Positions 40,437-58,524 of a stretch of DNA of 64,000 nucleotides are shown piece after piece. Positions within the stretch are counted from its first letter, which is position 1; every line of letters starts with the position of its first letter. This DNA is from an uncultured Bacilli bacterium (GTDB lineage Bacteria; Bacillota_I; Bacilli_A; RF39; UBA660): contig CAKOKN010000002.1 of the NCBI GenBank assembly GCA_934091055.1, forward strand, positions 153 to 64,152. Reading direction: 5' to 3'. A program made the position numbers and the translations under genes. The notes beneath the pieces were generated by a model. It saw only the letters and a list, made by a program, of their open reading frames with translations, searched no databases and was not told the origin of the DNA.

Positions 40437-40697
40437 TATATACCCTCCATAACATAATTTTAACATAAAGAAAAAACTATTACTAGTCTATTCTTCAAAA
40501 TTAATAGGAAGTTCGTTATCATTGGGTCTATCCAAAAAATAATTATTTTGATATTTATGAAATCTATTAACCATAATATTATTTATAGGTATTTTTATAG
40601 GTATTAAAGTATAATCTTATTTAAAACAATGAATTAAGTGGCAAATTTTATGTAATAAATTATAATTTATAGTATAATAAAAAAGAGGTGATATTAT

Positions 40698-42440
40698 ATG
40701 GAATTTAAAGATAAATTTAATGAACTACTTAATAAATTAAACTGTACATCAAGGAAACTATCCGTAGAATCTGGAATATCAGAATCAGTAATAAGCAGAT
40801 ACAGAAGTGGAGAAAGAACTCCAAAGAGTGATAGTAAACAAATAAAAAAAATAATCGAAGCCTTATATAATGTTTCACTAGAACAAAAAAGTCCTAAATA
40901 TACTAGAAAAGACATCGAAAAAATATTAATTAATTCACTAAAAGAACAAAATCCATTTGATTATGATAATTTAAGTAAAAATTTAAATGAATTAATTTTG
41001 GCATTAAATATAAATATAAATGATATGTCTAAGTATATAGTTTTTGATTCTTCACATATATCAAGAATTAGATATGGTAAAACAAAACCTTCTGACCCAT
41101 TAGAGTTTAGTACTAAAATAGCAAACTATATAATGTCAAAGTATAATGGTAATGAAGATAAAAAAGTATTAAAGGAATTAATAAATTGTCAAGATGAAGA
41201 ATTACAAGATAAAAAAATATTTGAAACAATATATAATTATTTAACTAATAGTACTAGTAGTCCATCTAAAGATTATATAAATGATTTTTTAAATAATTTA
41301 GATAACTTTAATTTAAACAACTATATAAAAGCTATAAAATTTGATGAATTAAAGGTTCCTAATCTACCATTTTATATTATAAAGAATAAAACATACTATG
41401 GTATTGAAGAAATGAAAAAAGGAGAACTAGATTTCTTTAAAGCTACTGTTTTATCAAAAAGTAAAGAGGATATCTTTATGTGTAGTGATATGCCTATGGA
41501 AGATATGGCTAAAGATATTGATTTTGGTAAAAAATGGATGTTTGCTATAGCGATGTCATTAAAGAAAGGATTACATATAAATATAATTCATAATTTAGAT
41601 AGACCATTTAATGAAATGATGTTAGGTTTAGAAAGTTGGATACCAATATATATGACTGGACAAGTATCACCATATTATTTAAAAGAAGTAAAAAATACTC
41701 CATATAATCACTTAAATTATGTTTCAGGAGTAGCAGCCTTATCAGGAGAATGCATAAAAGGTTATCATAATAAAGGTAAATATTACTTAACAAGTAACAG
41801 TAGAGAACTAGAATATTATCAAGAAAAGAAAGATTTACTTTTAAAAAAAGCTAATTCATTAATGGATATCTATAATGAGTTAAATATAAATAAACTAAAA
41901 GCATTTCTTTTAAAAGATACTAAAGTAATCGCAGATAGAAAAAGAATTTTATCTTCATTACCATTATTTACAATTAATGATGAACTATTACTTAAAATAT
42001 TAAAGAGAAATAAATTAAGTAAAGAAGAAATAAAAAAGATAGTAAATTACAAAAAAGAAGAAGAAAAAAATATTAATATAATATTAAAGAATAGTATTAT
42101 AACTGATAACATTTTTATCGAAGAAAAAAGCACTTTTGATAAAGATAATATATACTTATCATTAGAAAATATCTTTTACAAAGATAAAATAAAATATACT
42201 TATGAAGAATATAAAGAACATTTAAAAAATACTAGAGATTATTCAAAGAAAAATAAAAACTACAAAATAAATATAAATAATATTAAAACATTTAATAATA
42301 TATCTATAAACATAGTAAAAGATAATTATGTTGTAATAACTAAACAAGACTTTCCTACTATCCACTTTATAATTAGACACCCAAAGTTAATTGATGCAAT
42401 AAATAATTTTAATCCATTGGTAATAGAAAAAGATCTATAG
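40698..42440 (+). CDS. Tandem XRE-type HTH protein with large uncharacterised C-terminal region
   Basis: 580 aa. HTH 1 LNCTSRKLSVESGISESVISRYRSGERTP; HTH 2 LNININDMSKYIVFDSSHISRIRYGKTKP. The remaining ~430 aa have no recognisable motif. GAGGTGA RBS. Confidence 0.6.
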   Translation: MEFKDKFNELLNKLNCTSRKLSVESGISESVISRYRSGERTPKSDSKQIKKIIEALYNVSLEQKSPKYTRKDIEKILINSLKEQNPFDYDNLSKNLNELILALNININDMSKYIVFDSSHISRIRYGKTKPSDPLEFSTKIANYIMSKYNGNEDKKVLKELINCQDEELQDKKIFETIYNYLTNSTSSPSKDYINDFLNNLDNFNLNNYIKAIKFDELKVPNLPFYIIKNKTYYGIEEMKKGELDFFKATVLSKSKEDIFMCSDMPMEDMAKDIDFGKKWMFAIAMSLKKGLHINIIHNLDRPFNEMMLGLESWIPIYMTGQVSPYYLKEVKNTPYNHLNYVSGVAALSGECIKGYHNKGKYYLTSNSRELEYYQEKKDLLLKKANSLMDIYNELNINKLKAFLLKDTKVIADRKRILSSLPLFTINDELLLKILKRNKLSKEEIKKIVNYKKEEEKNINIILKNSIITDNIFIEEKSTFDKDNIYLSLENIFYKDKIKYTYEEYKEHLKNTRDYSKKNKNYKININNIKTFNNISINIVKDNYVVITKQDFPTIHFIIRHPKLIDAINNFNPLVIEKDL

Positions 42441-42466
42441 ACTTTAAAGTTAATAGATCTTTTTAT
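42427..42466 (+). terminator. Intrinsic terminator of the HTH gene
   Basis: Stem AAAAGATCTAT (42427-42438) / ATAGATCTTTT (42453-42464) followed by T residues. The stem overlaps the stop codon. Confidence 0.55.
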
Positions 42467-42580
42467 TAATTATCAAATTTTTCTAGGCAATGTATATATT
42501 CAATTGTTGAGTCTTTTAAATGTTATTATTATCTTCTCCAACAACATATATTTTTAATTTTAAATTTAGTCATAATTATT

Positions 42581-43264
42581 TCATATCTCAATCCATTGAT
42601 TATTTTTCCATATCATATTAAAGTTTTTAGAATTCTTAGCTTCCTTTTTCCATATATAATGTTCAACATCAGCTACATTTAATTCAAGTTCATTGCACGC
42701 TATTTCAAACAATTCAACTGCATACTTGTCATTTACTTTTCTGCCAACTATTTCTGATATTTTATTTTTAATATGGACATCAGGTTTAACAGTATTAGCT
42801 CCTAAAAGCATTCTAATGTATTGAAATGTTGTAAAACCAATACCCGTGACATTAAAATCATTATAATCTTTAATGCTAGATTGACTTGCCCACCTTCTTA
42901 ATGAGAGTAATTCATTTCTACATTTATATAAGTTTGCTATTTCAATAAATCGATTACACAAATTATATAACATTCTGACTCTATCTGGATGATTATAATT
43001 CCAACAATCTTTAAATTCATCAATTCCAACGCTCTCTATCAGCTTACTCAAGTCCTCTAGTGTCATTATATCTGGATATTTGTTTTGAAAATAAGTAATT
43101 CTAGGAACAACAAAAGTATAATATTTTCTGTTTATAGATAAAACAGCATCTAGACATACTAATACAGCATTTTCATAATTGCCAAGTGCCTTTTCTTCTA
43201 CATTATCTATATTAATATCTGATAAATACTCTTTTAATAAAAATAAATCCTTTTCTTTTTTCAT
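42581..43264 (-). CDS. Hypothetical protein with helix-hairpin-helix / EndoIII-like motif
   Basis: 227 aa. VTGIGFTTFQYIRMLLGANTVKPDVHI resembles the HhH plus downstream Asp (xVDTH) arrangement of HhH-GPD glycosylases. Ends in TGA. Confidence 0.35.
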   Translation of the reverse strand: MKKEKDLFLLKEYLSDINIDNVEEKALGNYENAVLVCLDAVLSINRKYYTFVVPRITYFQNKYPDIMTLEDLSKLIESVGIDEFKDCWNYNHPDRVRMLYNLCNRFIEIANLYKCRNELLSLRRWASQSSIKDYNDFNVTGIGFTTFQYIRMLLGANTVKPDVHIKNKISEIVGRKVNDKYAVELFEIACNELELNVADVEHYIWKKEAKNSKNFNMIWKNNQWIEI

Positions 43265-43286
43265 GTGCTTTAATTCCTTTAATAAA

Positions 43287-43889
43287 TTAATAACTTTTAT
43301 TAGGGCTAATATAAGGTTCGTATGTGTTTTTATATTTATTTATAGTTTCACTAACATTAAACCAATAAACATTTGTTAGTATTCCATCAGATGGATCTAC
43401 CTCTGTTCTTTCAAGCTTGCCACCTAATGCTTTTAATGTTCTATCTGATCCAATATTATTAACATCACAATCTAACATAACCTCGTCGAGACCTAGCTTT
43501 TGTGCTTCAATCAAACCTAAATATAAATTTATTTTATTATAGCCTTTTCTTCTTTCTGTTGGTCTAATTCCATAACCAATATGACCTCCAAATTGTAACA
43601 TTGACTCATTTAAATTCCATCTAACATTAATTGCACCAACAATTTTATCATCATTTTCTCTAATAAGTAAAAATGTTTTTGATTGGCATCTCCCAAATTT
43701 TTCTGCATATTCTTTATTTTCCATATTTAAACATCTTTGTAGGGCCTGTTCAAAAGTGTAACCATCAAATATTTTGTTTAATGATCCAATCCCATTCGTA
43801 TCAGAATTATATTCAGCAAGTTCATTAATGTATTCCATTATCTCACTTTTTCTTCCAATTGAGGGCTTTTCTAAATAGAATTTTTCCAT
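43287..43889 (-). CDS. GNAT family N-acetyltransferase
   Basis: 200 aa. GYGIRPTERRKGYNKINLYLGLIEAQKLG acetyl-CoA-binding-type motif (R/QxxGxG/A-like) and VMLDCDVNNIGSDRTLKALGG. Confidence 0.7.
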   Translation of the reverse strand: MEKFYLEKPSIGRKSEIMEYINELAEYNSDTNGIGSLNKIFDGYTFEQALQRCLNMENKEYAEKFGRCQSKTFLLIRENDDKIVGAINVRWNLNESMLQFGGHIGYGIRPTERRKGYNKINLYLGLIEAQKLGLDEVMLDCDVNNIGSDRTLKALGGKLERTEVDPSDGILTNVYWFNVSETINKYKNTYEPYISPNKSY

Positions 43890-44051
43890 AATATTTCTTT
43901 CTAATACTCCTTCTTTAATTAATAACTATTATTTAATCAAAATGTCCACACAACCAAAATTATGTGGACAAATTGTAATCTTTTCTTCATTATTAAATCG
44001 TTTTTTGTAATTCAAAATTTTGAAATCATTTGTTTTATAACGAATTGTAAA

Positions 44052-46550
44052 TTATTTACCACAGCATTGTTTATACTTCTTTCCACTGCCACATGGACAA
44101 GGATCATTTCTACCAACCTTAGTACTCTTCTTTTGTACCTTAGTGTGGTCTTTACTATCGTTAGTAATAGCATTCTTAACAACCTGTTTTCTTTCAATAT
44201 TCTGTCTTATCTCAGACTTCAATAAATAAATACTAATATCTCTATTAATTCTAGCAAGCATTTCATCAAATAGTTGGTAACCTTCCATAGTATATGCCTG
44301 AAGTGGACTAGTATTAGCATAACCTCTAAGACCAATACCATCTCTTAAATGACTCATCGTAGAAATATGTTCCATCCAATAATTATCAATAACTCTAAGA
44401 GAAATAGCTTTTTCAAATTCATCTCTAACTTCCTCAGGAATATCTTCTAATTTCTCTTCATAATCCTTAACAGCATTATTATAGATAATATCAATTACCT
44501 CCTCAGGATGCCTATTATTAATTTCTGCTAGAGTAATTCTATATTTTCTAAGTAAATTCTCATTAACAGCCTCAAGTATTTCACTATAATCATTTTCCTT
44601 AAGTTTATTATTATCCACTAAATGTGAATTAACAATATCACTAATGTAATTTTTAAATCCTTGAAGAACAGACTCATGTATAGAATCATTATCAAGTATT
44701 TCATTTCTCTTGCCATAAATAATTTCTCTTTGATTATTCATAACATCATCATAGTTAAGAAGTTGTTTTCTAATATCAAAGTTATTACCCTCAACCTTTG
44801 TTTGAGCAGACTCAACAGTTTTAGAGAACATTTTATTTTGGATAGCTTGTTCTCCAGTAAATCCTAAGTTTTCCAACATACCTCTATATCTATCTGAACC
44901 AAATCTAACCATCAAATCATCTTCAAATGATACATAAAATTGAGTAAATCCAGGATCTCCTTGTCTTCCACTTCTACCTCTTAACTGATTATCAATTCTT
45001 CTAGATTCGTGTCTTTCACTACCGATAACACACAAACCACCAAGTTCTTTAACACCTTCACCAAGTTTGATATCAGTACCACGACCAGCCATATTAGTGG
45101 CAATGGTAACAGAGCCTTTTTCTCCAGCTTTAGCAATAATTTCAGCCTCTCTTGCGTGGTTCTTAGCATTTAGTACCTCGTGGGGAATTTTCTTTTTAGT
45201 AAGCATCTTACTAAGTAATTCTGAAGTTTCAATAGCAATAGTACCAACAAGTACTGGTTGTCCTAATTTATGTCTTCTTTCTATTTCTTTTACAATAGCA
45301 GAATACTTTCCTGCTTTACCAGGATATAATAAGTCTGTAGCATCCTCTCTAATAACAGGTTTATTTGTAGGAATTTGAATAACAAACATATTATAAATAT
45401 TTCTAAATTCCTCTTCTTCTGTTTTAGCAGTACCAGTCATACCAGCAATTTTATTATACATTCTAAAGTAGTTTTGGAAAGTAATTGTAGCCAAAGTTTT
45501 AGTCTCTTGTTGAATTTTAACACCTTCTTTAGCCTCAATAGCTTGATGAAGTCCATCTGAGAAAGCTCTACCTTTCATAAGTCTACCAGTAAATTGGTCT
45601 ACGATAACAACTTCACCATCTTGTACAACATAATCAACATCTAAACTCATAGTATAATTAGCTTTAAGTGCTTGATTAATATGATGTACTAAAGAAGTAT
45701 TATTAATATCATATAAATTATCTAAATGAAATCTCTCTTCTGCCTTTCTACTGCCTTCTTCAGTAAGACTGACAGCTTTAGTTTTTTCATCCATAATATA
45801 GTCCTCATTTTCATTTAAACTTTTGACAAATCTATCAGCATCCATATATAGATTAGCGGATTGCATAACTCCACCAGATATAATAAGAGGAGTTCTAGCT
45901 TCATCTATTAGAATAGAGTCAACCTCATCGACAATGCAGTAGTTAAGAGGTCTTTGTACTCTATTTTCTTTTTTGACAACCATATTATCTCTTAAATAGT
46001 CAAAACCAAGTTCGTTATTAGTACTATATAAAATATCACAATTATAAGCTTCTTGTTTTTCTTTGAAAGATAACTCTCTTAAATTAAGTCCAACAGTAAG
46101 ACCTAGAAATCTAAATATACTACCCATCCACTCAGAGTCTCTGGTAGACAAGAATTCATTAACTGTAACTATATGAACACCTTTACCTGTTAGAGCGTTT
46201 AAATAAGCAGGAAGTACACAAGTAAGTGTTTTACCTTCACCAGTTTTCATCTCTGCAATATTACCATAGTGAATAGCAAGACCACCTAGTAATTGGCAAT
46301 AGAAAGGCTTCATACCTACACATCTATAAGCTGCTTCTCTAGCAACAGCAAAAGCTTCAACTAATATATCTTCAAGAGTTTCTCCTTCTTCTAATCTTTT
46401 CTTAAATTTATCAGTATAACTAGCAAGTTTTTTATCAGATAATTTACTCATTTCTTCATCTAATGCATCTATTTGATCTGCTAGTTTACTAAATCTATAT
46501 AACTCTTTATACTCATTATCAAATAATTTCTTAAGTGTTTTAAACATCAA
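44052..46550 (-). CDS. secA: Preprotein translocase ATPase SecA
   Basis: 832 aa. MKTGEGKTL Walker [32 protein letters not shown]-terminal zinc motif [14 protein letters not shown]. Confidence 0.97.
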
Positions 46551-46633
46551 ATCATCTCCTAGATAATATTTTACTATATTTTAACTAAAAAAACTAGTAA
46601 ATATTTAATATTTACCATATTTTATTATAGTTT

Positions 46634-46716
46634 CACTTCGTGTCTATAGTCACTCAGTGTTTTTTGAAGCCAAAGGTCTTCAAAAAAGAGTTTTAAAGCC
46701 TAAGGTCTTTAAAACT
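46634..46716 (+). repeat. Modular stem-loop repeat, locus 7 (diverged M1 plus 2 hairpins)
   Basis: ACTTCGTGTCTATAGTCACTCAGT (46635-46658), TTTTTTGAAG-CCAAAGGT-CTTCAAAAAA (46660-46686), AGTTTTAAAG-CCTAAGGT-CTTTAAAACT (46689-46716). Confidence 0.85.
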
Positions 46717-46837
46717 TTAAAGTTATTAATGGTCATTATTACTAAAAAACAAGTCATAATGTGAAGTCGCAGTATAAATATAGACACAAAAAAACAAGTC
46801 TACATTTTTTTGTTATAATAAAATTGAAGGTAAAAAT

Positions 46838-46981
46838 ATGACAAGAATAAGAAAAGAACCAAATAGATATTGGTCAAAAGAAGAAAAGATAAAAATAATT
46901 AATGAAGTATTATTAAATTATAAAATCAATCTATCAACAGCCATTGTGGATAGACTAATACCCAAATTAATTCATATATGA
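46838..46981 (+). pseudogene. Possible remnant of an IS3-family transposase OrfA N-terminus (47 codons)
   Basis: My translation is MTRIRKEPNRYWSKEEKIKIINEVLLNYKINLSTAIVDRLIPKLIHI*. The RxYSxEEKLKIIxE-type start is typical of IS3/IS150 OrfA HTH proteins, but it stops after ~30 matching residues. No inverted repeats identified. Confidence 0.3.
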
Positions 46982-47021
46982 TATAATAATAATATAAACT
47001 ATTAGAAAGGAAGTAAACACT

Positions 47022-47918
47022 ATGAACATAAACTTAGAACTATATAAAACTTTTTATTATGTGGCTAAAAATGGTAATATAACAAGAGCGGCTAATGAAA
47101 TGATGATAAGTCAGCCAGCAATAAGTAAAAGTATTAAGACATTAGAAAATCAAATGGAAGTTAAACTTTTTGTTAGAAAAAGAGAAGGCGTAATATTAAC
47201 TGATGTGGGAGAAACCTTATATAAGAAAATAAAAGAAGCAATGGAATTAATTGAGTCTGCTGAAAATGACATAAAAGCTTTAACAAGTATGGAAATGGGA
47301 GTTATCAATATAGGAGCTAGTAAGACCATTTTACATGAATATTTAATGCCATATATAAAAAAATTTCACAAACAATATCCTAAGATAAATATTAGAATTT
47401 TTACGGATAAGACGGAAGAACTTATAAAAAAATCAAAGATTGGTTTAATTGATATAATATTCACAAATATGCCATACACTATTCCAAAAGAATTTAAAAT
47501 ATATAAATTAATGGAACTGCACGATTGCTTCGTGGCCAACGAAAATTTTAATTATCTAAAAGATAGAAAATTAAAACCAAGTGATTTAGAAAAACTACCA
47601 TTATTAGTATTAACAAAGGGAGCTACGACTAGGATAAGACTAGATGAATATTGTACTGAAAATAAAATAACAATACATCCAGAAATGGAGTTTGGTAGTA
47701 ATACACTTATAAAAGAATTTACTGAAGCAGGTTTTGGAATAGGAATGCTAACATATGAACACGTAAAAAAAGAATTAGATGATGGTACTCTATTTAAATT
47801 GAATATAGAAATACCACTTAAAGAAAAATATTTAGCGATGATCAACAATCCAGAAAATAGAAGTTTAATAACCAAAAACTTTATAAATTATATAAAAGAC
47901 AACACTAGTAATAGCTAA
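47022..47918 (+). CDS. LysR-family transcriptional regulator
   Basis: 298 aa. N-terminal LysR HTH LYKTFYYVAKNGNITRAANEMMISQPAISKSIKTLENQMEVKLFVR plus a substrate-binding-type C-terminus. Confidence 0.88.
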   Translation: MNINLELYKTFYYVAKNGNITRAANEMMISQPAISKSIKTLENQMEVKLFVRKREGVILTDVGETLYKKIKEAMELIESAENDIKALTSMEMGVINIGASKTILHEYLMPYIKKFHKQYPKINIRIFTDKTEELIKKSKIGLIDIIFTNMPYTIPKEFKIYKLMELHDCFVANENFNYLKDRKLKPSDLEKLPLLVLTKGATTRIRLDEYCTENKITIHPEMEFGSNTLIKEFTEAGFGIGMLTYEHVKKELDDGTLFKLNIEIPLKEKYLAMINNPENRSLITKNFINYIKDNTSNS

Positions 47919-49723
47919 TGTTGTCTTTTACCTTTTTTAATATTATTTTCCTCAATTTCATAAATAGAAGCATTCACAAATCTATGAAGTTCAATTAAAT
48001 ATCTAATTGTAGAGGCGTAATCTATATAATCATCATAATTTAATGATCCATCATTGCTTTTTGATAAAGTCAAATCTAAATTATCATCAAATACAGTGTT
48101 ATATATTTCAGCAAATTTTTTATTTATATAAGTTTTAATGTTTTTAATATTTGCAATGTTGTCGCGAATGTTAATAGTAAAAACTTTATTTACCTTACCA
48201 ATAGATATTTTAAATTCACCACTAATAGATATATTAGAATCATCGATAATACTAAAACTAAAATTATATGGTTCGCTGTTATAGTGTTTGTCTTTTTGGT
48301 CAATTAATTTTTGGAAGTCCCTTTTAGATATAGAATAAAAGGTATTTAAAACGTTTACAATATTATTATCAATAGTAGCAGCATTTTTCATAATTACAAG
48401 AATATTATAAATAAAATCTTCATAATTAATATTTGAAGTTAATATTAAATTAATTAAATATTTTGGTAATTTTCTTTGAAAATCATCACTAGCATAACCT
48501 CCATTTAGATGACTAGTATTTAGAATATCCATAATGTTTTTTTGAAAAATCTTGTTACTATTACTTCGAGCATTTTTAATTTGAAATGTTACTTTTTTTA
48601 AGCCATCAATAAGAGTTTCATTAGGAGTTCCATCAAAATTAGTATATCTATCATCAAAGTCATATATTATACCATTATTATTACTATCAGCAAGTTGTTC
48701 TTTTCTTTTCTCTTGCATTTGATCTTGAGAGACAATGGTACTTCTTGAATCTATAAATGTAACATTTGTAGTAAATGTTGTTTGAACTTTAGTTAAATTA
48801 GAGTTAGAAACATTTATATAATTTTTTAAATCTACGCTATTTAGTGCTACTATAGAATATAAACGATAGCATCCTAGTGTATCATCAAATATGGAAATAA
48901 GACCTAAATATCCATCAGTATTAGGAATATTTACAAGACTCATAATCTTTTTTTTAGATTGGTTGCAGACATATGTTAAAGTTTCAGTAGCACGTGAAGG
49001 AACTAAGCCACTTCCAATATTAATACTACTTAAAAGTAATTCTAAACAAGATCTCTTATAACCAATTTTATCAGTGTTATCTTTGTTTTCAAAAGAACTG
49101 TTTTGACTAATATCTATAAATAAATTATCAAACCAAGTTTGTTTAAAATTGCTATCAGTTAACATTGCAACAATTAAGTCAAAATAATTATTATAGTTAA
49201 CATTGTTGCTAGCTAAATAATTAGTCATCTCAGTATTTAAACTATTTCTAATACTGCTCACACTAGGTAATCCAAATAAATGAGGAATATTTTGCCTATC
49301 AATATAAATTCTGTAAGAATTTTCAGTTTGTGTAACAGTTAAGTAGTGTTCACTATATCTATCAACTGTGGTTTTAGCAGTTCTAAAATCATCTCTAATG
49401 GCCCTTTTTGCCAAAATAGGTTCTAAACTAGTATCAGATTTTTCAAGAACTTTTTTTCTAGTGTTTTCTCTATTTTGCATTGAAAATGAAGATAATATAG
49501 AAATATTAGGATCCGCTCCCTTGCTTTTAGTATCATCTTCACCAAGTAAGTTATCTGAATTTAAGCCAGTAGCATTTTGTGAAGTGTTTTTTGCATAGTT
49601 ATTGACGGTTAAAGGAGTATAGGTGGTTATTATTCCAAGGCTCATTAAAATTTCTAGCGAAGACATATCGGGAATATTATTATACCTTATTTGAAATTTA
49701 TTAATGGAACTAATCGAAGACAT
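47915..49723 (-). CDS. Large hypothetical protein (602 aa), second gene of an uncharacterised pair
   Basis: Long uninterrupted ORF. AAGGAGAG RBS embedded in the last codons of the upstream gene, with a 3-nt gap. No TM helix, signal peptide or catalytic motif recognisable by eye. Confidence 0.6.
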   Translation of the reverse strand: MSSISSINKFQIRYNNIPDMSSLEILMSLGIITTYTPLTVNNYAKNTSQNATGLNSDNLLGEDDTKSKGADPNISILSSFSMQNRENTRKKVLEKSDTSLEPILAKRAIRDDFRTAKTTVDRYSEHYLTVTQTENSYRIYIDRQNIPHLFGLPSVSSIRNSLNTEMTNYLASNNVNYNNYFDLIVAMLTDSNFKQTWFDNLFIDISQNSSFENKDNTDKIGYKRSCLELLLSSINIGSGLVPSRATETLTYVCNQSKKKIMSLVNIPNTDGYLGLISIFDDTLGCYRLYSIVALNSVDLKNYINVSNSNLTKVQTTFTTNVTFIDSRSTIVSQDQMQEKRKEQLADSNNNGIIYDFDDRYTNFDGTPNETLIDGLKKVTFQIKNARSNSNKIFQKNIMDILNTSHLNGGYASDDFQRKLPKYLINLILTSNINYEDFIYNILVIMKNAATIDNNIVNVLNTFYSISKRDFQKLIDQKDKHYNSEPYNFSFSIIDDSNISISGEFKISIGKVNKVFTINIRDNIANIKNIKTYINKKFAEIYNTVFDDNLDLTLSKSNDGSLNYDDYIDYASTIRYLIELHRFVNASIYEIEENNIKKGKRQH

Positions 49724-49726
49724 ACA

Positions 49727-50737
49727 TTATGCTCTCCTTTGCTTTTTAGGCTGAGGCTCACCAGAAAGTATTTCTTTTTCTTTTTTTGTCATTAATTCAG
49801 ATAAATCAACTTCTTTTTTAATACTTTTTGTATTCATAATAAAGCTGTTAATATAAACATCATTATTTTCTTCAAAATTTATTTTAAAGTCTTCTTTGAC
49901 ATTCATATTTAAAAAAGATATAACTTCATTCATCATCAAGAATAATTTATTTCTATTCATATCATTAGCATTACCCCAAAAGGTAACTATAACCTTATTG
50001 TTAGTACCGCCTAATGTTTCTAACAAGTATAATAGTGTTGTTACAGAATATGGGTTTTGAATAAGAAAAGTTTTACCATCATCTATTTTTTCTACATTAT
50101 CTTTAGTTACCTTAAATAACATCTTATCTTTCTTATATAGAATAGAATTATCCTCTCCGAGAGTACTTGCATATGGTGAAATAAGATTTTTTCTTTCTTT
50201 ATCAGCAGCATCTAATTTTCCTTTATATAACTCTATTACATCATCATTTTTTGGATCTATGCCCATCTTTAATAAATGGTCAACATATATATCGATCATA
50301 TTGTAATTGATTAAAGTCCATTGTTTAAAGTTATTATCTGAAGAAAACAAAGTATTGGAGTTGCTTATGTTATTATCAATAATATATTTTACAACATTTG
50401 ATGGATCATAACCTAACTTATTACAATAAAGAATATATAATTCTAAAGCGTATTCCATTGTATTACTGATTTTATAATCACCAAGTCTATTTAATTTATA
50501 ATCATTATTATATATATCATACTTACTTGTGTCTAAATTATGTTTATCATTAATTATGTTTTTACTTGTTTCTGTGTAATCACCAGGATCTATAATATTA
50601 TTTATATTGTAATCATCATTCATATTATTACTTGAATTATAATTACCTATATTTGTGTCTTCATCTTTAATTTTTCTATTAACATTAGCCCAATTGTTTT
50701 CTTGCGATATTTTGTAATTTATTGAATTTCTTTCCAT
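49727..50737 (-). CDS. Hypothetical protein (336 aa), first gene of an uncharacterised pair
   Basis: AAGGAGAG RBS 8 nt upstream of the ATG. Asn/Asp-rich N-terminal ~90 aa, basic tail KKQRRA. No recognisable motif. Confidence 0.6.
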   Translation of the reverse strand: MERNSINYKISQENNWANVNRKIKDEDTNIGNYNSSNNMNDDYNINNIIDPGDYTETSKNIINDKHNLDTSKYDIYNNDYKLNRLGDYKISNTMEYALELYILYCNKLGYDPSNVVKYIIDNNISNSNTLFSSDNNFKQWTLINYNMIDIYVDHLLKMGIDPKNDDVIELYKGKLDAADKERKNLISPYASTLGEDNSILYKKDKMLFKVTKDNVEKIDDGKTFLIQNPYSVTTLLYLLETLGGTNNKVIVTFWGNANDMNRNKLFLMMNEVISFLNMNVKEDFKINFEENNDVYINSFIMNTKSIKKEVDLSELMTKKEKEILSGEPQPKKQRRA

Positions 50738-51023
50738 AATTTTAAATCACTCTCCTTCTTTGAAAATAACTAAATCTAGATAAAAATATTATATCATACA
50801 AATTAAATAGTTAAAATACATATTAATTATGCAAGATATAACTTTATGTTATGGTAAATACATATTAATATATATAATTCATTATACCAAAAAAGAATTA
50901 TAATATCAATATCAGTAAAAGCCTTATATAACTAAAAGTTATAATTAAAATAACAAATATGTATTTTACTTATATAATATACAATGATATAATACAAACT
51001 GATTTTCAGAAAGGAGGAAATTT

Positions 51024-51242
51024 ATGGGCAATTTAAATAATAAAAACAAAGAAGTATTAACAGATGCAGAAATAATAAAAATCATTAAGGTTCTATTGGA
51101 AATGTTAGAATATAGAAGAAGATTAGAAATAGAATATCCAAATATAATTTCAACCAGTGAACTAGATAAATACAAAAATAATATAAACAATGATGATAAG
51201 TACACAAAAATTAAAAAGAATAATTATATAAGTTATAAATAA
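51024..51242 (+). CDS. Small hypothetical protein (72 aa)
   Basis: Strong RBS GAAAGGAGGAAATTTATG. Predicted helical and charged. Divergent from the 336/602-aa pair. Confidence 0.5.
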   Translation: MGNLNNKNKEVLTDAEIIKIIKVLLEMLEYRRRLEIEYPNIISTSELDKYKNNINNDDKYTKIKKNNYISYK

Positions 51243-51325
51243 TAGAGGATAAAGATGAAAGAAATTAAAAAATTATATTTGTGTTTATGATGAAAAGCCA
51301 CGAATAAAAAGGAAGAAGGTATAAA

Positions 51326-51916
51326 ATGAGAAAAGAAGAATTAATAAAGCTTAAAGAAAAATTAGAAATGGAAAAAAGAAATCAAAGTAAATACGTTTTA
51401 GTTGATGATACAGGAATTTCAGGAGATAATCACTTTACATTAGAAGAAATTAAAAAAAGAAATGATGAAAAAGAGCTTGTCAAAAATATAGAAAAATTAT
51501 TTGAAGAATTAATACATCATTATTCTGATTTGGATATAGCATATGACTCCATAAACTTGTTAATAAGTTATGCCTTATTTTATAAAAAATATGATTATTT
51601 AAAAAAAGAAAGTTATCCAGAAAATTTTAAACCACTATATGATTATATCTGTTTAAGAATAAGTTACTTTTATTGTTCTGAAAGAGAAAAAGAATATGAA
51701 GAGGATCCAACAGACATATTAGTTAAATATGATAAGGAATATATTATGACTTTAAGTAGTTTTAAGAGAACTCTAGTAGAAAGAGGTTTTGACATATCAT
51801 TAATACATGATTTTAAAGAGGTTGAAGAGTATATATCAAATGAAGAAATACTATGTGCTAAATTACCGATTAATTTTTCCAGTACTAATTCAAAAACAAA
51901 AAAATATGTGAGATAA
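51326..51916 (+). CDS. Hypothetical protein (196 aa)
   Basis: RBS AAGGAAGAAGG upstream of the ATG. No recognisable motif. Followed by a clean terminator. Confidence 0.5.
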   Translation: MRKEELIKLKEKLEMEKRNQSKYVLVDDTGISGDNHFTLEEIKKRNDEKELVKNIEKLFEELIHHYSDLDIAYDSINLLISYALFYKKYDYLKKESYPENFKPLYDYICLRISYFYCSEREKEYEEDPTDILVKYDKEYIMTLSSFKRTLVERGFDISLIHDFKEVEEYISNEEILCAKLPINFSSTNSKTKKYVR

Positions 51917-51938
51917 AACGAAACTCACATATTTTTCT
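51900..51938 (+). terminator. Intrinsic terminator
   Basis: Stem AAATATGTGAG (51902-51912) / CTCACATATTT (51924-51934) followed by TTTT. Confidence 0.65.
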
Positions 51939-51939
51939 A

Positions 51940-52002
51940 TATCAACAGCTTCTGTGGATACATAAACTCTCAAAGAAAAAGTATCAACAATTCCTGTTGA
52001 TA
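51940..52002. promoter_or_regulatory. Two convergent DnaA-box-like pairs (21-bp palindromes)
   Basis: TATCAACAGCTTCTGTGGATA (51940-51960) and TATCAACAATTCCTGTTGATA (51982-52002), centres 42 bp apart, between two convergent gene ends. Confidence 0.5.
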
Positions 52003-52010
52003 CTCTAATA

Positions 52011-52538
52011 TTATTTAGTTTCAATTAAACCATAGTCGCCATCTTTTCTCTTATAAAGTACACATACCTTATCAGTATCCATATCTTTATATACAAAGAA
52101 AGAGTGCCCTAATAGTTCCATTTCAAGTATAGCCTCTTCTTCATCCATAGGCTTCATTTCTATATTTTTCCTTTTAACTACTTTTTCTTTAGATTCTTCA
52201 TCTTCAAGAATTTCATAGTCAAAGTTGAATTCTTTAACATTCTCTTTAACATTTCTATTTAATCTTGTTTTATTCTTTCTGATTTGTCTTTCTAGCTTGT
52301 CTGTAACTAAGTCAATAGCGGCATATAAATCATCATTTTCTTCCTCACTTCTAAGAATAAACTTACTAGTAGGAATAGTTACCTCTACTATTTGATTATT
52401 GCCTCTAACTCTAGCAAGTACATTAGCAGTAATATCATCATCCTTAAAATATTTTTCAAGTCTTCCTAATTTAGATTCAGTGTAGTCTTTAATGGCGTCT
52501 GTAATCACCATTCTATCACCACGAATATTGTATTTCAT
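52011..52538 (-). CDS. hpf: Ribosome hibernation promoting factor, long form
   Basis: 175 aa from MKYNIRG. N-terminal RaiA/HPF fold (ITDAIKDYTESKLGRLEKYF) and C-terminal dimerisation domain (KPMDEEEAILEMELLGHSFFVY...YKRKDGDYGLIE). Confidence 0.9.
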   Translation of the reverse strand: MKYNIRGDRMVITDAIKDYTESKLGRLEKYFKDDDITANVLARVRGNNQIVEVTIPTSKFILRSEEENDDLYAAIDLVTDKLERQIRKNKTRLNRNVKENVKEFNFDYEILEDEESKEKVVKRKNIEMKPMDEEEAILEMELLGHSFFVYKDMDTDKVCVLYKRKDGDYGLIETK

Positions 52539-52623
52539 ATACATCATCCTTTCTAACTATAGTATAACAAATTACTAATAAAAATTAAATAGAATTAAGT
52601 AAAATAACATAATTTAACATAAT

Positions 52624-53538
52624 TTACTTCCAAAGATTATAATTATATTCACCATTATCTACTAGATTTTTAATGGCACTTCTAACTGAAGGAGTATCCT
52701 CTTTATAAGTAACTCCATACCAACTAGCAGTAGTATTAATAACTTTAGTAGTTACTTTATTTTCCTGAATTAGTTTTTCTAAAACATCTGGAATTAAGTA
52801 TTCACTAGTTAAAAGATTATCTTTATTCTCTTCGAGGAATATAGGGAATCTATCTTCTATATGTTTAAATATACTAGGAGTAAATAATAAGAAATTCATA
52901 CTTACTGTGGCATTGTCATCAACATTAAATTCTCCTCTTCCATCTAAAGGTTTAGCAACAATGACATTATTAACTCTCTCAACTTTACTTTCTATAATTG
53001 ATTTTAAATAATCATTTTCATCTACTTCACATACACCTCTTTTAACAGAACCATTCTCAGTTAATGTATTAGATACCATATAACCAATCATTCCATAATT
53101 ATTAGAGTTACTATCAACATTAACTAAAAAGTTATATGCTTTAATAAATGCATCTCTTCCATAAAAATCATCAGCATTAATCATAGCAAATGGTTCATTC
53201 ACTACATCTTTGCAGCAAAGTACTGCGTGAGCAGTTCCTAAAGGTTTTGTTCTATCACTAGGTAGTTCATATCCTATAGGTAAGTTATTTAATTCCTGAA
53301 AGGCATATTCTACCTTAATGTGAGGCTCTACTCTTGCTCCTATTGTTTCTTTAAATAAATCATAATTCTCTCTCTTTATTAAGAATACTATTTTGTTAAA
53401 ACCAGCCTTAATAGCGTCATAAACGGAATAGTCAATAATAAACTCATCACTAGGACCCATAGGTTCAATTTGTTTAAGACCTCCAAAACGACTACCCATA
53501 CCAGCAGCCAAAATAACTAAAGTAATATCTTTTTTCAT
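52624..53538 (-). CDS. Sugar-phosphate nucleotidyltransferase family protein
   Basis: 304 aa. N-terminal VILAAGMGSRFGGLKQ (GxGxRx nucleotide-binding loop) and a GT-A-like NTP-transferase layout. Substrate unknown. Confidence 0.7.
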   Translation of the reverse strand: MKKDITLVILAAGMGSRFGGLKQIEPMGPSDEFIIDYSVYDAIKAGFNKIVFLIKRENYDLFKETIGARVEPHIKVEYAFQELNNLPIGYELPSDRTKPLGTAHAVLCCKDVVNEPFAMINADDFYGRDAFIKAYNFLVNVDSNSNNYGMIGYMVSNTLTENGSVKRGVCEVDENDYLKSIIESKVERVNNVIVAKPLDGRGEFNVDDNATVSMNFLLFTPSIFKHIEDRFPIFLEENKDNLLTSEYLIPDVLEKLIQENKVTTKVINTTASWYGVTYKEDTPSVRSAIKNLVDNGEYNYNLWK

Positions 53539-53791
53539 CTTTCCTCCTTAAAGCAATAAATTTATGTTTACTTTTTGCTTATAGCAAATTAAAACATACT
53601 ACTTTCAACTTGATTATATCAAAGAAAAATTAAAAAGTTAACCCTTTTTGTTTAAAAAACTAAAAAAAGTAACATTATATAAAAGAATATTCGCAGATAT
53701 TCATACGAGAGAAGATCTTTCTCTTTTTTCTTTTTAAAAATATTTATTTATTTCTTATATTTTGATATACTTTAATTAGGAGGTAGAAAAT

Positions 53792-54148
53792 ATGGATATA
53801 TTTTGTAAAATTATTAATGGAGAAGTACCATCATATACTATATATGAAGATGATATAGTTAAAGTGTTTCTAGATGTAAATCCTAATCATTTAGGACATA
53901 CTCTTATAGTACCTAAAAAGCATTATCAAGATTTTTTTGATATCGATGATGTTACTCTTCATCATATATTAAAAGTAGCCAAAGAAGTAGCGGAACTATT
54001 GAAAGAAAGATTAAATTACGATGGTATTTCATTATGTGAAAATAATGGTTTAGGTCAGGAGGTTAAACACTTTCACCTACATTTAATACCAAAATATAAT
54101 AATGAAAAAAAATTAACTTTAGAAGAAGTATATAAAAAATTAAAGTAG
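53792..54148 (+). CDS. hit: HIT family (Hint-like) nucleotide hydrolase
   Basis: 118 aa. Canonical triad VKHFHLHLIPK and GHTLIVPKKH. Confidence 0.9.
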   Translation: MDIFCKIINGEVPSYTIYEDDIVKVFLDVNPNHLGHTLIVPKKHYQDFFDIDDVTLHHILKVAKEVAELLKERLNYDGISLCENNGLGQEVKHFHLHLIPKYNNEKKLTLEEVYKKLK

Positions 54149-54166
54149 GTTTATGCCTACTTTTAA
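54142..54166 (+). terminator. Intrinsic terminator of hit
   Basis: AAAGTAGG-TTTATG-CCTACTTT followed by T residues. Overlaps the stop codon. Confidence 0.55.
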
Positions 54167-54214
54167 TATTGGAAAAAACTATCCGAAGATAGTTTCATAT
54201 ACTTAAAAGATATT

Positions 54215-54316
54215 TTAATATAAGAAAGCAGATCCTAATATAATAGCAAGTAAAATATATAAAACAATAACGATTAAGAAGCCATTACTTCCCTTACATG
54301 AACTATTTGTAGACAT
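54215..54316 (-). CDS. YjcZ-like small hydrophobic peptide (33 aa)
   Basis: Not in the ORF track (too short). My translation is MSTNSSCKGSNGFLIVIVLYILLAIILGSAFLY. GGAGGTG RBS at 54322-54330. Confidence 0.5.
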   Translation of the reverse strand: MSTNSSCKGSNGFLIVIVLYILLAIILGSAFLY

Positions 54317-54334
54317 TATTTTGCACCTCCTTTA

Positions 54335-54424
54335 TTATATCCAAGCGCCTAGTATGATTATTAGTAGAATAAATAATACTAAAACAATTGCAGCAGAAGA
54401 ACCACAAGTTCCACAGTTACCCAT
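54335..54424 (-). CDS. YjcZ-like small hydrophobic peptide (29 aa)
   Basis: My translation is MGNCGTCGSSAAIVLVLFILLIIILGAWI. GGAGGAA RBS at 54431-54437. Resembles the Gly/Cys-rich head plus (A/I)LIVVLFILLIIxG tail of the YjcZ sporulation peptide family. Confidence 0.5.
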   Translation of the reverse strand: MGNCGTCGSSAAIVLVLFILLIIILGAWI

Positions 54425-54553
54425 AATACATTCCTCCTTTTTTTCTATTCACATTATTTTATGGAAAAATATAAAAAAGGTGTCGGATTATATCTAATAT
54501 AAAATTCAAAAGATTAAAAACTATGGTAATTAACCCATATTTCTAAAATAACC

Positions 54554-54582
54554 TTGAAATTTTTAACTATTTTTGATATTAT
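54554..54582 (+). promoter_or_regulatory. Candidate sigma-A promoter of prsA
   Basis: TTGAAA (54554-54559), 17-nt spacer ending in TGA (extended -10), TATTAT (54577-54582). Lies ~28 nt upstream of the RBS/ATG. Confidence 0.4.
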
Positions 54583-54609
54583 ATTAATGTATCTTTGAAA
54601 GGAGAATAA

Positions 54610-55692
54610 ATGATGACAAAGAAAAAAGAAAAGGAAATAAACATACCAGAAAAGAGTAAAAAAGAAAAGAAAAATAAGAATAGCAAAAATATGAAACAGG
54701 ATAAATTATATAAATTTTTTGATTTTGTAGATAAATATAGATTAGCTATTTATGGTGCAGTCGGAGGAGTTCTTGTAACAATACTAGTAGTTATACTTAT
54801 TTGGCCTGAACGTATTGCTAAATTAAAGGATGGTACAGAACCAGTTGTAAAAATAGATGGAATGACAATAAATGCAGAGACTTTATATGAAGATATGAAA
54901 GATATGTATTCAATTACTGCTTTATTAGATAAAATAGATAATAAAATACTTGAAGAAAAATATCCTGAGACAGATGAAATGAACGATGAATTACAAAGCC
55001 AAGCAGAAAGTTATTATAGTGCTTATGAACAATATTATCAATTAAGTAAAGAAGACTTTTTAACTAAACAAGGTTTTGGAAGTGAAAAAGCTTTTATTGA
55101 ATATTTAAGACTAAATTATCGTAGAAAACAATATGCTGAAGATTATATTAAGAGTCAAGTAACAGATAAAGAGATCGAAGACTATTATAATGATAAAGTA
55201 TATGGTGATATAAATACTAAACATATCTTAGTAAAAGTTGAAAGTGATGCAACAGATGATGAAAAGAAAAAAGCAGAAGACTTAGCTAAAGAAATTATAG
55301 CTAAATTAGATGAAGGTAAATCATTTGATGAAGTAAAAGAAGAATATAAGGATTCTACTACTTATGAAGAGTTAGGATATAAATCATACAATGCTAATTT
55401 AGAGTCTGCTTATATGGAAGAAATGCAAAAACTAGAAGATAATAGTTATAGTAAAACTCCAGTTAAAACTTCATATGGTTATCATATAATCTATAGAATA
55501 GATCAAAAAGAAAAACCTAAATTAGAGGATATTAAAGATGAAGTTATAGAGTCAATTGCTACACAAAAGTCAGCAGATGATGCTAATCTTTCATATATAG
55601 CTTTAGATAAGATGAGACAAGATGCTGGATTAAAATTTGATGATACAGTTCTAGAAGCAAAATATGAAACTTATATGAAACAATATAAATAA
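54610..55692 (+). CDS. prsA: Foldase PrsA-like peptidyl-prolyl isomerase (parvulin type), membrane anchored
   Basis: 360 aa. N-terminal Lys-rich segment plus TM helix (AIYGAVGGVLVTILVVILIW). Parvulin domain INTKHILVKV...SYGYHIIYRI. Confidence 0.8.
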   Translation: MMTKKKEKEINIPEKSKKEKKNKNSKNMKQDKLYKFFDFVDKYRLAIYGAVGGVLVTILVVILIWPERIAKLKDGTEPVVKIDGMTINAETLYEDMKDMYSITALLDKIDNKILEEKYPETDEMNDELQSQAESYYSAYEQYYQLSKEDFLTKQGFGSEKAFIEYLRLNYRRKQYAEDYIKSQVTDKEIEDYYNDKVYGDINTKHILVKVESDATDDEKKKAEDLAKEIIAKLDEGKSFDEVKEEYKDSTTYEELGYKSYNANLESAYMEEMQKLEDNSYSKTPVKTSYGYHIIYRIDQKEKPKLEDIKDEVIESIATQKSADDANLSYIALDKMRQDAGLKFDDTVLEAKYETYMKQYK

Positions 55693-55696
55693 TAAA

Positions 55697-55727
55697 TAAA
55701 AATGGTATCAACTAAATACCATTTTTT
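55697..55727. terminator. Bidirectional terminator between prsA and the convergent gene
   Basis: AAAAATGGTAT-CAACTAA-ATACCATTTTT, with an A-run and a T-run on either side. Confidence 0.6.
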
Positions 55728-56352
55728 AATTACTAATTTTATTAAACATTTTTACAGTTTTATAGAAGTCTTGAAACTTCTTATTCCAATTATATTTAAT
55801 CTCTTTAATCAAAGTCTTCTTAATAATATCAATATCTTGTTCTTCTTTTTCAAAATAATCATAGTATAAATATTTCAAATTAATAAGAGAGTTTTCTTTA
55901 GATATATATCTAATAAGAAAATCTTTCTTTTCTTTCTCAAGTCTATTTATATTAAATATTCTTCTTTTTTGATTTTTAATTATACCAATATTATATTTAT
56001 TATTATCATTAACTTCGTCAAGAACTTCTTCTTCTTCATCTAGTAGAAGGCTACTTCTTTTAATTAAGTTACCCTTGTCATTAAATAGAAGGCCCATAGC
56101 TTCTTTACCATTGGTAATAAGACAAGAAGGTCCAACCTTAAGTTTAGTGTAGGTACTAGTTTTGTCTTTAATACTTCTTATAAAATCCTGATCTACAGTA
56201 ATGATATTATATTTCATCGAAGTATAAGTATTATTATCAACAAGAAAAAAAGGGATCTTTTTAATATTTATAATATTATCACTTTTATACCACTCAAAAA
56301 AATTATAATAGTCCTTATTAAAATTTAGTACTACATCATAAATATAATTCAT
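55726..56352 (-). CDS. Hypothetical protein (208 aa)
   Basis: Uninterrupted ORF. Its start overlaps the upstream 69-aa ORF stop by 4 nt (ATGA). No motif recognised. Confidence 0.5.
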   Translation of the reverse strand: MNYIYDVVLNFNKDYYNFFEWYKSDNIINIKKIPFFLVDNNTYTSMKYNIITVDQDFIRSIKDKTSTYTKLKVGPSCLITNGKEAMGLLFNDKGNLIKRSSLLLDEEEEVLDEVNDNNKYNIGIIKNQKRRIFNINRLEKEKKDFLIRYISKENSLINLKYLYYDYFEKEEQDIDIIKKTLIKEIKYNWNKKFQDFYKTVKMFNKISN

Positions 56353-56558
56353 TTTTTATCGTCTCCTTTAAGTGTTATAGATAGTGTCATCATAATTATA
56401 CCAATTATACTATAATAACATTCTATTCTTCTGATAATAAAATTAACATAATTAACAAAATTATACCCCATTGTAAGTAAATTTAAATATAAAATAATGT
56501 AGCTGCAGCCTATTACTGTTAATCCAAATCCCAGTAAGAATATAATTGCCCTTACCAT
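56349..56558 (-). CDS. Small membrane protein (69 aa, two TM helices)
   Basis: Hydrophobic segments AIIFLLGFGLTVIGCSYIILYL and YYSIIGIIMMTLSITL. Translationally coupled to the next gene. Confidence 0.45.
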   Translation of the reverse strand: MVRAIIFLLGFGLTVIGCSYIILYLNLLTMGYNFVNYVNFIIRRIECYYSIIGIIMMTLSITLKGDDKK

Positions 56559-56614
56559 ATTTCCACCTACTAAATACTATGTAAATATATTAGTAATATA
56601 ATAAAAAAAGAAAA

Positions 56615-58439: not shown

Positions 58440-58524
58440 AGTTCGAGCCTATAGTCTCTCACTATCATTAAAGCCTAAGGTCTTTAATGAAAAATATGAA
58501 GCCTATCAAATAGTCTTCATATTT
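58440..58524 (+). repeat. Modular stem-loop repeat, locus 8 (M1 plus 2 hairpins)
   Basis: AGTTCGAGCCTATAGTCTCTCACT (58440-58463), CATTAAAG-CCTAAGGT-CTTTAATG (58466-58489), AAATATGAAG-CCTATCAAATAGT-CTTCATATTT (58492-58524). Differs from locus 3 by 1 substitution and a 1-nt indel. Confidence 0.9.

Follow-up and report, generated by a model that had tools for sequence, protein, structure and literature searches.

We analysed a 64-kb stretch of DNA (contig CAKOKN010000002.1, ~25% guanine plus cytosine, GC; hereafter the window) from an uncultured Bacilli bacterium, with attention to the interval between the conserved genes hpf and secA and to the 21-bp palindromes that frame its contents. A sequence-only reading of the same DNA had described an island of ~5.4 kb separating the two genes, and the distance was confirmed as 5,460 nt. 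The genes listed in that reading, namely a LysR-family regulator gene, a pair of large genes (encoding p336 and p602) and two small genes on the opposite strand (encoding p72 and p196), were all found at the positions it gave. The interval and its flanks contain the following features, in window coordinates:

44052-46550, minus strand: secA, the right-hand conserved flank of the hotspot, with seven SecA Pfam domains
46634-46716: dispersed ~90-nt multi-hairpin repeat, copy upstream of secA, from repeat comparison
46717-46736: terminal-palindrome remnant, right half only, from the alignment of array tails with relatives
46737-46931: species-specific segment of 195 nt between the right-border palindrome and the terminal-palindrome remnant, from blastn-short
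46838-46981, plus strand: orf47, an entry of 47 codons in the list of open reading frames (ORFs)
46932-46952: palindrome 3, right border, TATCAACAGCCATTGTGGATA, strict pattern match
47022-47918, plus strand: LysR-family regulator gene, PF00126 (HTH_1) 4.7e-18 and PF03466 (LysR_substrate) 1.1e-30
47892-47931: hairpin where the LysR gene and p602 converge, at their 3' ends, from the terminator scan
47915-49723, minus strand: ORF of p602, a large near-orphan protein
49727-50737, minus strand: ORF of p336
50738-51023: divergent control region of 286 nt between p336-p602 and p72-p196
51024-51242, plus strand: ORF of p72, a small protein
51255-51290, plus strand: 12-codon remnant of the 65-aa gene F20, from the blastn break against contig L081
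51326-51916, plus strand: ORF of p196
51940-51960: palindrome 2, left border, TATCAACAGCTTCTGTGGATA, strict pattern match
51978-52006, minus strand: palindrome 1 with its T-run, the intrinsic terminator of hpf, from the terminator scan
51982-52002: palindrome 1, GTATCAACA-N5-TGTTGATAC, strict pattern match
52011-52547, minus strand: hpf, the left-hand conserved flank, with the Pfam S30AE domain and a C-terminal domain

The palindromes share the 21-bp consensus TATC[C/A]ACA-N5-TGT[T/G]GATA (8-5-8). Six strict matches occur in the window, against 0.07 expected from shuffled sequences, and in related loci 229 palindromes were counted in 168 kb downstream of hpf, compared with 27 in 853 kb elsewhere. 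Two DnaA-box-like palindromes of 21 bp (51940-52002) had already been noted at the hpf side. Both are real and were placed correctly, but one is the terminator of hpf and the other is the left border of a cassette, and the third copy at 46932-46952 had been overlooked. Among 72 unique palindromes the spacer measures 5 nt in 68, the arms are near-invariant and the spacer is free to vary in sequence. The C/A choice at arm position 5 is AA in 33, CA in 24, CC in 13 and AC in 1 of the palindromes, so the choice is polar and often uncompensated. Because the arms are fixed, the spacer is free and the C/A mismatch is both uncompensated and polar, the palindromes appear to reflect sequence recognition rather than selection for a hairpin.

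The terminator after the hpf stop codon is conserved in all relatives that carry palindrome-separated arrays. Ordinary termination was rejected as a full explanation of the palindromes, since only palindrome 1 passes the terminator scan, the arms are conserved with uncompensated C/A differences, and sites are located upstream as well as downstream of cassette genes. In viral contigs, the extended palindrome pattern gave no match, and a degenerate pattern gave scattered single matches in unrelated contigs that were judged to be chance.

Around the variable DNA, a constant frame was observed. On the hpf side, the hpf stop codon is followed by palindrome 1 with its T-run, ~20 nt, palindrome 2 and then the palindrome-separated cassettes. 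On the secA side, the penultimate palindrome is followed by ~22 nt, the terminal palindrome TATCAACATATACTGTTAATAACTTAG, the dispersed hairpin repeat and the secA promoter. The array tails of relatives align on ...TGTTAATAACTT..., of which the window retains only CATTAATAACTT. At six empty sites, 239-248 nt in length, only palindrome 1, the terminal palindrome and the hairpin repeat are present. What had been taken for the boundary of an island is the fixed frame of a cassette hotspot. No palindrome lies within the window island, which we therefore treat as a single 5-kb cassette (46932-51960).

The stem-loop locus upstream of secA, correctly recognised in the sequence-only reading, belongs to a dispersed repeat that has five copies in the window and consists of a conserved box and two or three hairpins. 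Repeat comparison placed the further copies at 17703-17794, 23339-23426 (reverse complement), 28163-28224 and 58440-58530. Compensatory (double) changes affect 7 of the 16 predicted pairs of its hairpins. The copies are intergenic and lie upstream of polA, polC, secA and rmuC, and a search of the whole window at Rfam gathering thresholds gave no match, for this repeat or otherwise. Two related-strain contigs end at the polC-side copy. Since the repeat stands upstream of secA at empty sites (L086, L087, L094) and occupied sites alike, the stem-loop locus belongs to the frame and is not debris of an island, as had been proposed.

The short ORF at the same edge, orf47, had been read as the start of an OrfA of the insertion sequence (IS) family IS3. 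It has no Pfam match even at E<=10, its residues ~24-45, in the C-terminal half, are the translation of the palindrome at 46932-46952, and its apparent matches in relatives are other palindromes; orf47 is probably not a gene. Its first 31 codons, together with promoter-like sites, fall in the 195-nt segment at 46737-46931, which blastn-short matched only in the conspecifics L081 and L084. If an integrase or an IS3-family element had brought in the DNA as a mobile island of the classical kind, with the 47-codon ORF as a remnant, this species-unique segment at the secA-side edge would fit, as would a homologous p336-p602 pair that adjoins an rve-domain transposase in one unrelated contig (L165). 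Against this, orf47 resembles no transposase at E<=10, and palindrome makes up half of its length. Around the island no IS inverted repeats or target duplication were found, the sole flanking repeats being the palindromes, and terminal inverted repeats, direct repeats other than the palindromes, tRNA genes and an integrase are likewise absent there. This explanation is largely refuted, and we consider it extremely improbable.

The composition of the island is native, that is, the same as in the rest of the genome. Tetranucleotide distances within it are 0.139-0.157, against a mean of 0.145 (standard deviation 0.032) over the window, and GC at third codon positions (GC3) is 0.13-0.19 in island genes and 0.12-0.22 in core genes. 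A comparison of k-mers and codon usage had been proposed as a check for foreignness; both measures equal those of the flanks, which indicates that the cargo was drawn from the same gene pool rather than from a distant donor.

The normal state of the locus was surveyed at 80 secA loci from GTDB species representatives, with hpf searched within 10 kb. It was present in 47 of the 80 loci, and in 39 of these 47 it is located <1 kb upstream of secA on the same strand; this adjacent set includes Bacillus, Enterococcus, Paenibacillus and Clostridium. In the nearest outgroups the gap measures 74 nt (L088), 87 nt (L003), 88 nt (L125), 134 nt (L158) and 147 nt (L004). Adjacency is thus the common arrangement, in most Firmicutes as well as in these outgroups, as the sequence-only reading had assumed. 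The nearest genome, the human-gut metagenome-assembled genome L001, encodes a SecA with 94% amino acid identity to that of the window. By blastn, the two are collinear at window positions 44053-46729 and 51976-56599, which defines a variable segment at 46730-51975 where L001 has a single unrelated gene of 481 aa.

A scan of metagenome contigs with Hpf yielded 80 human-gut loci, in which Hpf is 80-99% identical in amino acid sequence to that of the window. The comparison of the hpf-secA interval among relatives, also proposed earlier, showed that the window cargo is carried only by conspecific assemblies, L084 and the Logan contig L081 (both with Hpf ~99% identical), and that sister species have either an empty site or unrelated cargo there. 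Compared with L081, the island is 96.75% identical and the flanks are 98.25% identical. The earlier description of a horizontally acquired module holds in so far as accessory DNA lies within a conserved gene pair, but its boundary features and private regulator do not.

Among 49 related human-gut loci containing both hpf and secA, the gap between the two genes ranges from 74 to 5,589 nt. The ORFs in these gaps belong to ~27 protein families that occur in differing combinations, each bounded by palindromes; examples are F7-F3, F3-F5, F4-F5, F7-F3-F5, F4-F5-F11, F24-F7-F3-F8, F3-F5-F8-F9 and F2-F1-F12. Each cassette family keeps one orientation, and the relative order of the families is near-fixed, with the exception of L156, while families on both strands are found among the cassettes. 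These comparisons suggest that the hpf-secA interval is probably a lineage-specific hypervariable cassette site in a genus of uncultured low-GC human-gut Bacilli.

Some of the cassette families have recognisable matches. F1 is a KilA-N protein with a full-length match to the PADLOC candidate PDC-S22 (4e-117), F9 is a DUF4145 protein matching PD-T7-4 (8.5e-14, PADLOC), F22 carries a CdiA_C toxin domain, F24 is a CPBP/Rce1-like protease, and F2 combines a helix-turn-helix (HTH) domain with a metallophosphatase. F6 (481-500 aa, the cargo of L001) and most other families gave no match in Pfam/PADLOC-type searches. With the matches of F1, F9 and F22, and most families unmatched, the site resembles a defence or conflict hotspot as far as these predictions go. 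A KilA-N cassette with 88% DNA identity to F1 was also observed in a more distant relative (L170, 13297-14227), with an adjacent palindrome at 13304-13323. It lies in variable DNA after a large protein, downstream of a LysR gene, at the position where two other relatives (L169 and L171) have secA; secA was not found in the L170 stretch fetched. On the strength of this copy, the F1-type cassette has crossed genus-level boundaries.

Two further regions of the window are variable or carry palindromes. A fourth palindrome of the perfect class, TATCAACAACACCTGTTGATA, lies at 28274-28294, just downstream of a NifU-like gene, with a copy of the dispersed repeat next to it, an arrangement that matches the frame of empty hpf-secA sites. 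In L176, an integrase-bearing element and a LysR cluster follow NifU. This region may be a second hotspot. Downstream of secA, a second variable region (39812-44051) encodes a 580-aa protein with an N-terminal HTH_3 domain, an unknown 227-aa protein and a GNAT-like 200-aa protein, and its counterpart in L001 (12496-17470) has different genes and palindromes at 15627 and 17271.

The endpoints of homology between arrays provide evidence for exchange. In non-redundant arrays, 70% of internal endpoints lie <=40 nt from a palindrome centre, compared with 9.5% for random positions, and the median distance between breakpoint and palindrome centre is 21 nt (227 nt for random positions). Arrays differing by one cassette (L127 and L126; L140 and L130) switch homology inside the palindrome. 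Furthermore, loci whose secA genes are only ~90% identical share cassettes F1, F2, F3 and F7 at 99-100% identity. When L097 is compared with L103, the gene upstream of hpf is 68-81% identical, the stretch running from mid-hpf across F2-F1 is 98-100% identical, and secA is ~90% identical. This pattern points to a recent interspecies transfer with one crossover inside hpf, and therefore to homologous recombination. A ComK homologue encoded at 3287-3766 suggests natural competence. Searches of the window ORFs with at least 110 aa, and the annotation of the neighbouring genes in L081 and L167, revealed no integrase, resolvase or transposase domains, and no tRNA was found at the island.

From these observations we infer a mechanism in which cassettes would be gained, lost and swapped among related species, with recombination ending either within palindromes or within the conserved genes on the two sides. 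This would most likely proceed by homologous or short-homology recombination following DNA uptake, to which palindrome-by-palindrome deletion may be added; given the fixed orientation and near-fixed order of the cassettes, such deletion probably accounts for much of the diversity. A gene of the RmuC family lies at 57246-58334, ~5 kb from the array. RmuC of E. coli limits inversions at short inverted repeats, and the proximity here is probably coincidental.

The same data bear on a dedicated site-specific platform of the integron or pdif type, in which a recombinase encoded elsewhere would act on the 21-bp palindromes, or on double-palindrome units of ~64 bp, and move circular cassettes. The near-invariant half-sites with a freely varying spacer of exactly 5 nt in 68 of the 72 unique sites are what such a platform would show, as are homology switches within the palindrome and a single orientation for each cassette, expected of directional sites. 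The polarity of the sites (C/A in 24, the reverse in 1), with its uncompensated mismatch, also favours recognition by a protein over hairpin pairing. However, no integrase, resolvase or transposase was found in the window ORFs of at least 110 aa or in the ±10 kb examined around 80 related loci, the sites fit neither attC (55-140 nt) nor Xer sites (11-6-11), and the cassettes were not found at other loci within the DNA compared. At least one exchange, moreover, had its crossover in the hpf coding sequence and was homologous rather than site-specific. We regard such a platform as rather unlikely, and homologous or short-homology recombination combined with deletion as the preferred mechanism.

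The resemblance of the palindromes to DnaA boxes was examined against the region around dnaA, where the window annotation places the following genes:

2069-3160, minus strand: recF
3956-5071, minus strand: dnaN
5217-6581, minus strand: dnaA

On both sides of dnaA, TTATCAACA and TTATCCACA boxes form clusters (5003-5221 and 6679-6801), and converging box pairs with a 4-5-nt spacer stand beside the gene at 5160-5180 and 6780-6799. The cassette half-sites TATC[C/A]ACA are the same two 8-mer variants as these boxes. Compared with the 9-mer TTATNCACA, positions 2-9 match, and position 1 is T in 32 of 144 half-sites, while the boxes beside dnaA mostly have TT. At the level of sequence, the likeness of the palindromes to the organism's own DnaA-box variants is real.

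The palindromes could accordingly be paired DnaA boxes in the first place, forming a putative DnaA-binding cluster ~45 kb from dnaA for replication control, or serving as operators or insulators, with recombination as a by-product of repeated sequence. The identity of the half-sites with both variants that cluster on either side of dnaA, the same converging arrangement beside that gene and the occurrence of palindromes both 5' and 3' of cassette genes would fit such a role. The first T of the 9-mer, however, is not conserved in the cassette palindromes as it mostly is near dnaA, and a function of this kind leaves unexplained why a palindrome bounds every cassette. We consider it possible while leaning against it, and it is compatible with the other explanations. 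A more ambitious proposal joins the two ideas. The converging 8-mers would then be the recombination sites of a cassette platform, recognised by an unknown recombinase acting in trans, or by DnaA or another DnaA-box-binding protein that organises capture, insulation and exchange; the locus would be an integron analogue without an on-site integrase, serving a genus-wide pool of defence or conflict genes. This we think improbable.

Within the window cassette, the p336 and p602 genes lie 3 nt apart, and p602 is predicted to be translationally coupled to p336. The 3' ends of p602 and the LysR gene converge with a 4-nt overlap. The control region at 50738-51023 contains a 51-nt imperfect inverted repeat (arms 50802-50852 and 50928-50978) and the best promoter-like sites in both directions. 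The window has also undergone a 128-nt deletion (scar 51279-51283), which truncates the 65-aa gene F20 that is intact in L081 and L084.

The cargo had been described as ORFans. This is nearly so for p602, with 2 homologues among 5.8e9 proteins and 3 representatives among 1.84e9, and for p72, for which a 47% homologue was found at the same relative position in L164. It does not hold for p336 and p196, which have diverged homologues across the wider lineage. Six clusters of homologues were found for p336, of which residues ~95-309 are homologous to a LysR-linked family of ~203 aa (23-30%, E 1e-8 to 1e-11), and p196 is homologous to a LysR-linked family of ~187 aa (32-34% amino acid identity, E ~1e-23). 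The search for the cargo in other contexts that had been suggested was carried out, and the p336-p602 pair was recovered in four further contigs (L164, L163, L165 and L082) at 34-55% amino acid identity. In L164 it is accompanied by homologues of p72 and p196 in the same layout as in the window, in L163 by a p196 homologue, and in L165 it lies next to the rve transposase.

Searches with p602, p336, p72 and p196 against Pfam, PHROGs, PADLOC and NCBIfam gave no match; a PglX-like match of p196 (E 1.6e-4, short) was weak and judged spurious. No relatives of p336 were found in viral contigs. The AlphaFold2 model of p336 (7 sequences) reached a predicted local distance difference test (pLDDT) score of 53, was confident only at residues ~198-315, and had no Foldseek match in the PDB at E<=0.001. 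The corresponding model of p602 (3 sequences) had a pLDDT of 46 and was not used. Sequence profile searches of the PDB with p602, p336 and the 559-742-aa family of large proteins found in LysR neighbourhoods of relatives returned nothing meaningful.

The LysR protein is the most conserved of the set, with >100 protein clusters at 69-76% identity. Eight contexts of its gene were examined in relatives (L169-L173, L176-L179). Diverged p336-like genes are linked to it in all eight, and p196-like genes in most, so the regulator is not private to the island, as had been claimed. The layout consists of a gene of ~368 aa, a Sigma70_r4 gene of ~318 aa, often one of ~187 aa, and one of ~203 aa, all divergent from the LysR gene, which is itself convergent with a fast-evolving protein of 413-742 aa. 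The LysR gene of the window converges on p602 and is not divergent from the operon, whereas in relatives it diverges from the p336-like/p196-like operon; the Sigma70_r4 and ~368-aa partners were not found in the window. Homology of p602 to the 559-742-aa family was considered and is not established, as hhalign aligned only a 21-column NIPHxxGxP motif at 20% probability.

The location of the cluster changes between relatives. It lies directly upstream of secA in L169 and L171 (SecA 70% identical), beside suf genes and the integrase-bearing element in L176, and beside an amidase gene in L173 and L179. On this evidence, the LysR gene is the apparent conserved anchor of a lineage-wide, location-changing cluster, of which the window carries a rearranged variant (LysR, p336-like, p196-like and a large fast-evolving protein). 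A conflict system would be expected to show just this pairing of a highly conserved regulator with partners that evolve very fast. Considering also the defence-type cassettes at the site and the frequent relocation beside integrative elements, the set might act in conflict with phages or plasmids, with the LysR protein controlling the divergent p336-p602 and p72-p196 operons, whose shared control region holds the inverted repeat and strong promoter-like sites. We offer this as a tentative guess that is more doubtful than not.

The position of the cluster in L169 and L171 also raises the question of whether anything was acquired. The module could be ancestral at this place, with the LysR cluster upstream of secA in the common ancestor, kept in the window species and lost or replaced in sister species through deletion between palindromes. 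The homologous cluster of LysR, large-protein, p336-like and p196-like genes beside secA in those two relatives, the near-fixed order and orientation of cassettes and the native composition of the island are in keeping with such a history. Yet in L169 and L171 hpf was not found in the 8 kb fetched on either side of the LysR gene and the gene order differs, and the cluster is found at unrelated loci in L176, L173 and L179. The outgroups to the array-bearing clade (L088, L125, L158, L003, L004) have gaps of 74-147 nt without palindromes, and no long 'master' array was observed among the 49 loci. An ancestral module is quite unlikely in our estimation.

Several points weigh against a hypervariable site whose cassettes are exchanged, the reading that we prefer. 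With fixed orientation and near-fixed order, the combinations could largely result from differential deletion rather than exchange. The homologous cluster beside secA in L169 and L171 means that the position may be old and not newly acquired. Palindromes of 21 bp are short for RecA-dependent recombination, and a site-specific recombinase encoded in trans is possible, the survey having covered 64 kb of the genome and ±10 kb of relatives. The window cargo itself has no PADLOC, PHROG, Pfam, PDB or fold match that would support a role in defence. Finally, the evidence for exchange is wholly comparative and comes from metagenome assemblies, which are prone to breaks and mis-joins at repeats; identical array architectures recur in independent samples, which argues against an assembly artefact.

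Other observations concern the remainder of the window. The dnaA, dnaN, ComK homologue, recF and gyrB genes at 454-6801 are all on the minus strand, and so are nearly all genes between 10.8 and 64 kb, which would place the latter head-on to a fork from an origin beside dnaA. The GC skew tracks gene orientation without a switch. An origin at another place, or a rearrangement of the region, may account for this. The gyrB gene is split into overlapping ORFs at 1307-2044 (ATPase part) and 454-1323 (Toprim and C-terminal part), through either a frameshift or an assembly error. A HerA/FtsK-like ATPase (6845-8602) adjoins dnaA. Possible remnants of a conjugative element are encoded further along, namely a coupling protein of the VirD4/TraG type (19990-21381), an HTH protein of the AraC type (21416-21892) and a Fic protein (21976-23064). 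The polC region (22000-30000) is the sole tetranucleotide and GC outlier in the window (GC ~31% versus ~26%).

Hotspots flanked by core genes are already known, among them defence islands and the 'minimal mobile elements' of Neisseria, which are described as alternative cargo between conserved genes (PMC3898611, PMC1797815). The hpf-secA site shares with them two constant conserved flanks, alternative cargo, empty sites, homologous recombination in the flanks (here in L097/L103) and cargo that is partly of defence type, in a host that encodes ComK. It differs in that each sub-cassette is delimited by a conserved 21-bp palindrome and recombines independently, and in its host, an uncultured gut Bacilli lineage. 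The dRS3 element of Neisseria is a 20-bp palindrome with a variable centre that bounds intergenic mosaic elements and is also a target of phage integration. As in those mosaics, palindromes of ~20 bp separate variable blocks and mark breakpoints near variable genes. The sequences are unrelated, however. Most blocks in Neisseria are non-coding repeats of 50-150 bp, while those at the hpf-secA site are complete genes with promoters, and the viral contig scans revealed no connection to phages here.

The pdif modules of Acinetobacter are described as discrete genes with their own promoters and short palindromic sites, without, in these accounts, a recombinase of their own (PMC6449649, PMC13141974). 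The present cassettes are likewise palindrome-bounded gene modules in varying combinations with no module-encoded recombinase. However, pdif sites measure 28 bp (11-6-11), are used by XerC/XerD, alternate in orientation and are mainly plasmid-borne, whereas the sites described here are 8-5-8, nearly all of one polarity (C/A 24, A/C 1) and chromosomal. Integron arrays are similar in having cassettes of one or a few genes in variable combinations, imperfect palindromes between them and one chromosomal platform. They differ in their attC sites of 55-140 nt (R''/L''...L'/R'), compared with 21 bp here, in the tyrosine-recombinase gene (intI) next to the array and in having mostly promoterless, co-oriented cassettes. 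At the present site, PF00589 was found neither among the window ORFs with at least 110 aa nor among the neighbours annotated in L081 and L167, the cassette families occupy both strands, and promoter-like sites lie between the divergent operons of the window. The clusters of DnaA boxes outside oriC in Bacillus subtilis are comparable in that the 8-mers equal the dnaA-side boxes and are intergenic, within ~45 kb of dnaA. Unlike those clusters, the sites here are strict converging pairs with a 5-nt spacer, lack a conserved first T and are tied to cassette borders.

A literature search for cassettes flanked by DnaA boxes or for a hotspot between hpf and secA returned nothing relevant. As far as these searches show, a conserved polar 21-bp palindrome that matches the organism's own DnaA-box variants at every sub-cassette is undescribed. 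The LysR-anchored cluster is a lead separate from the palindrome-framed hotspot. If the palindromes are true recombination sites, they would represent a new cassette-exchange system in a prevalent uncultured lineage of the human gut, and would offer a simple way to mine its accessory genes by sequence, among them two matches to known or candidate anti-phage genes and many unknown families.

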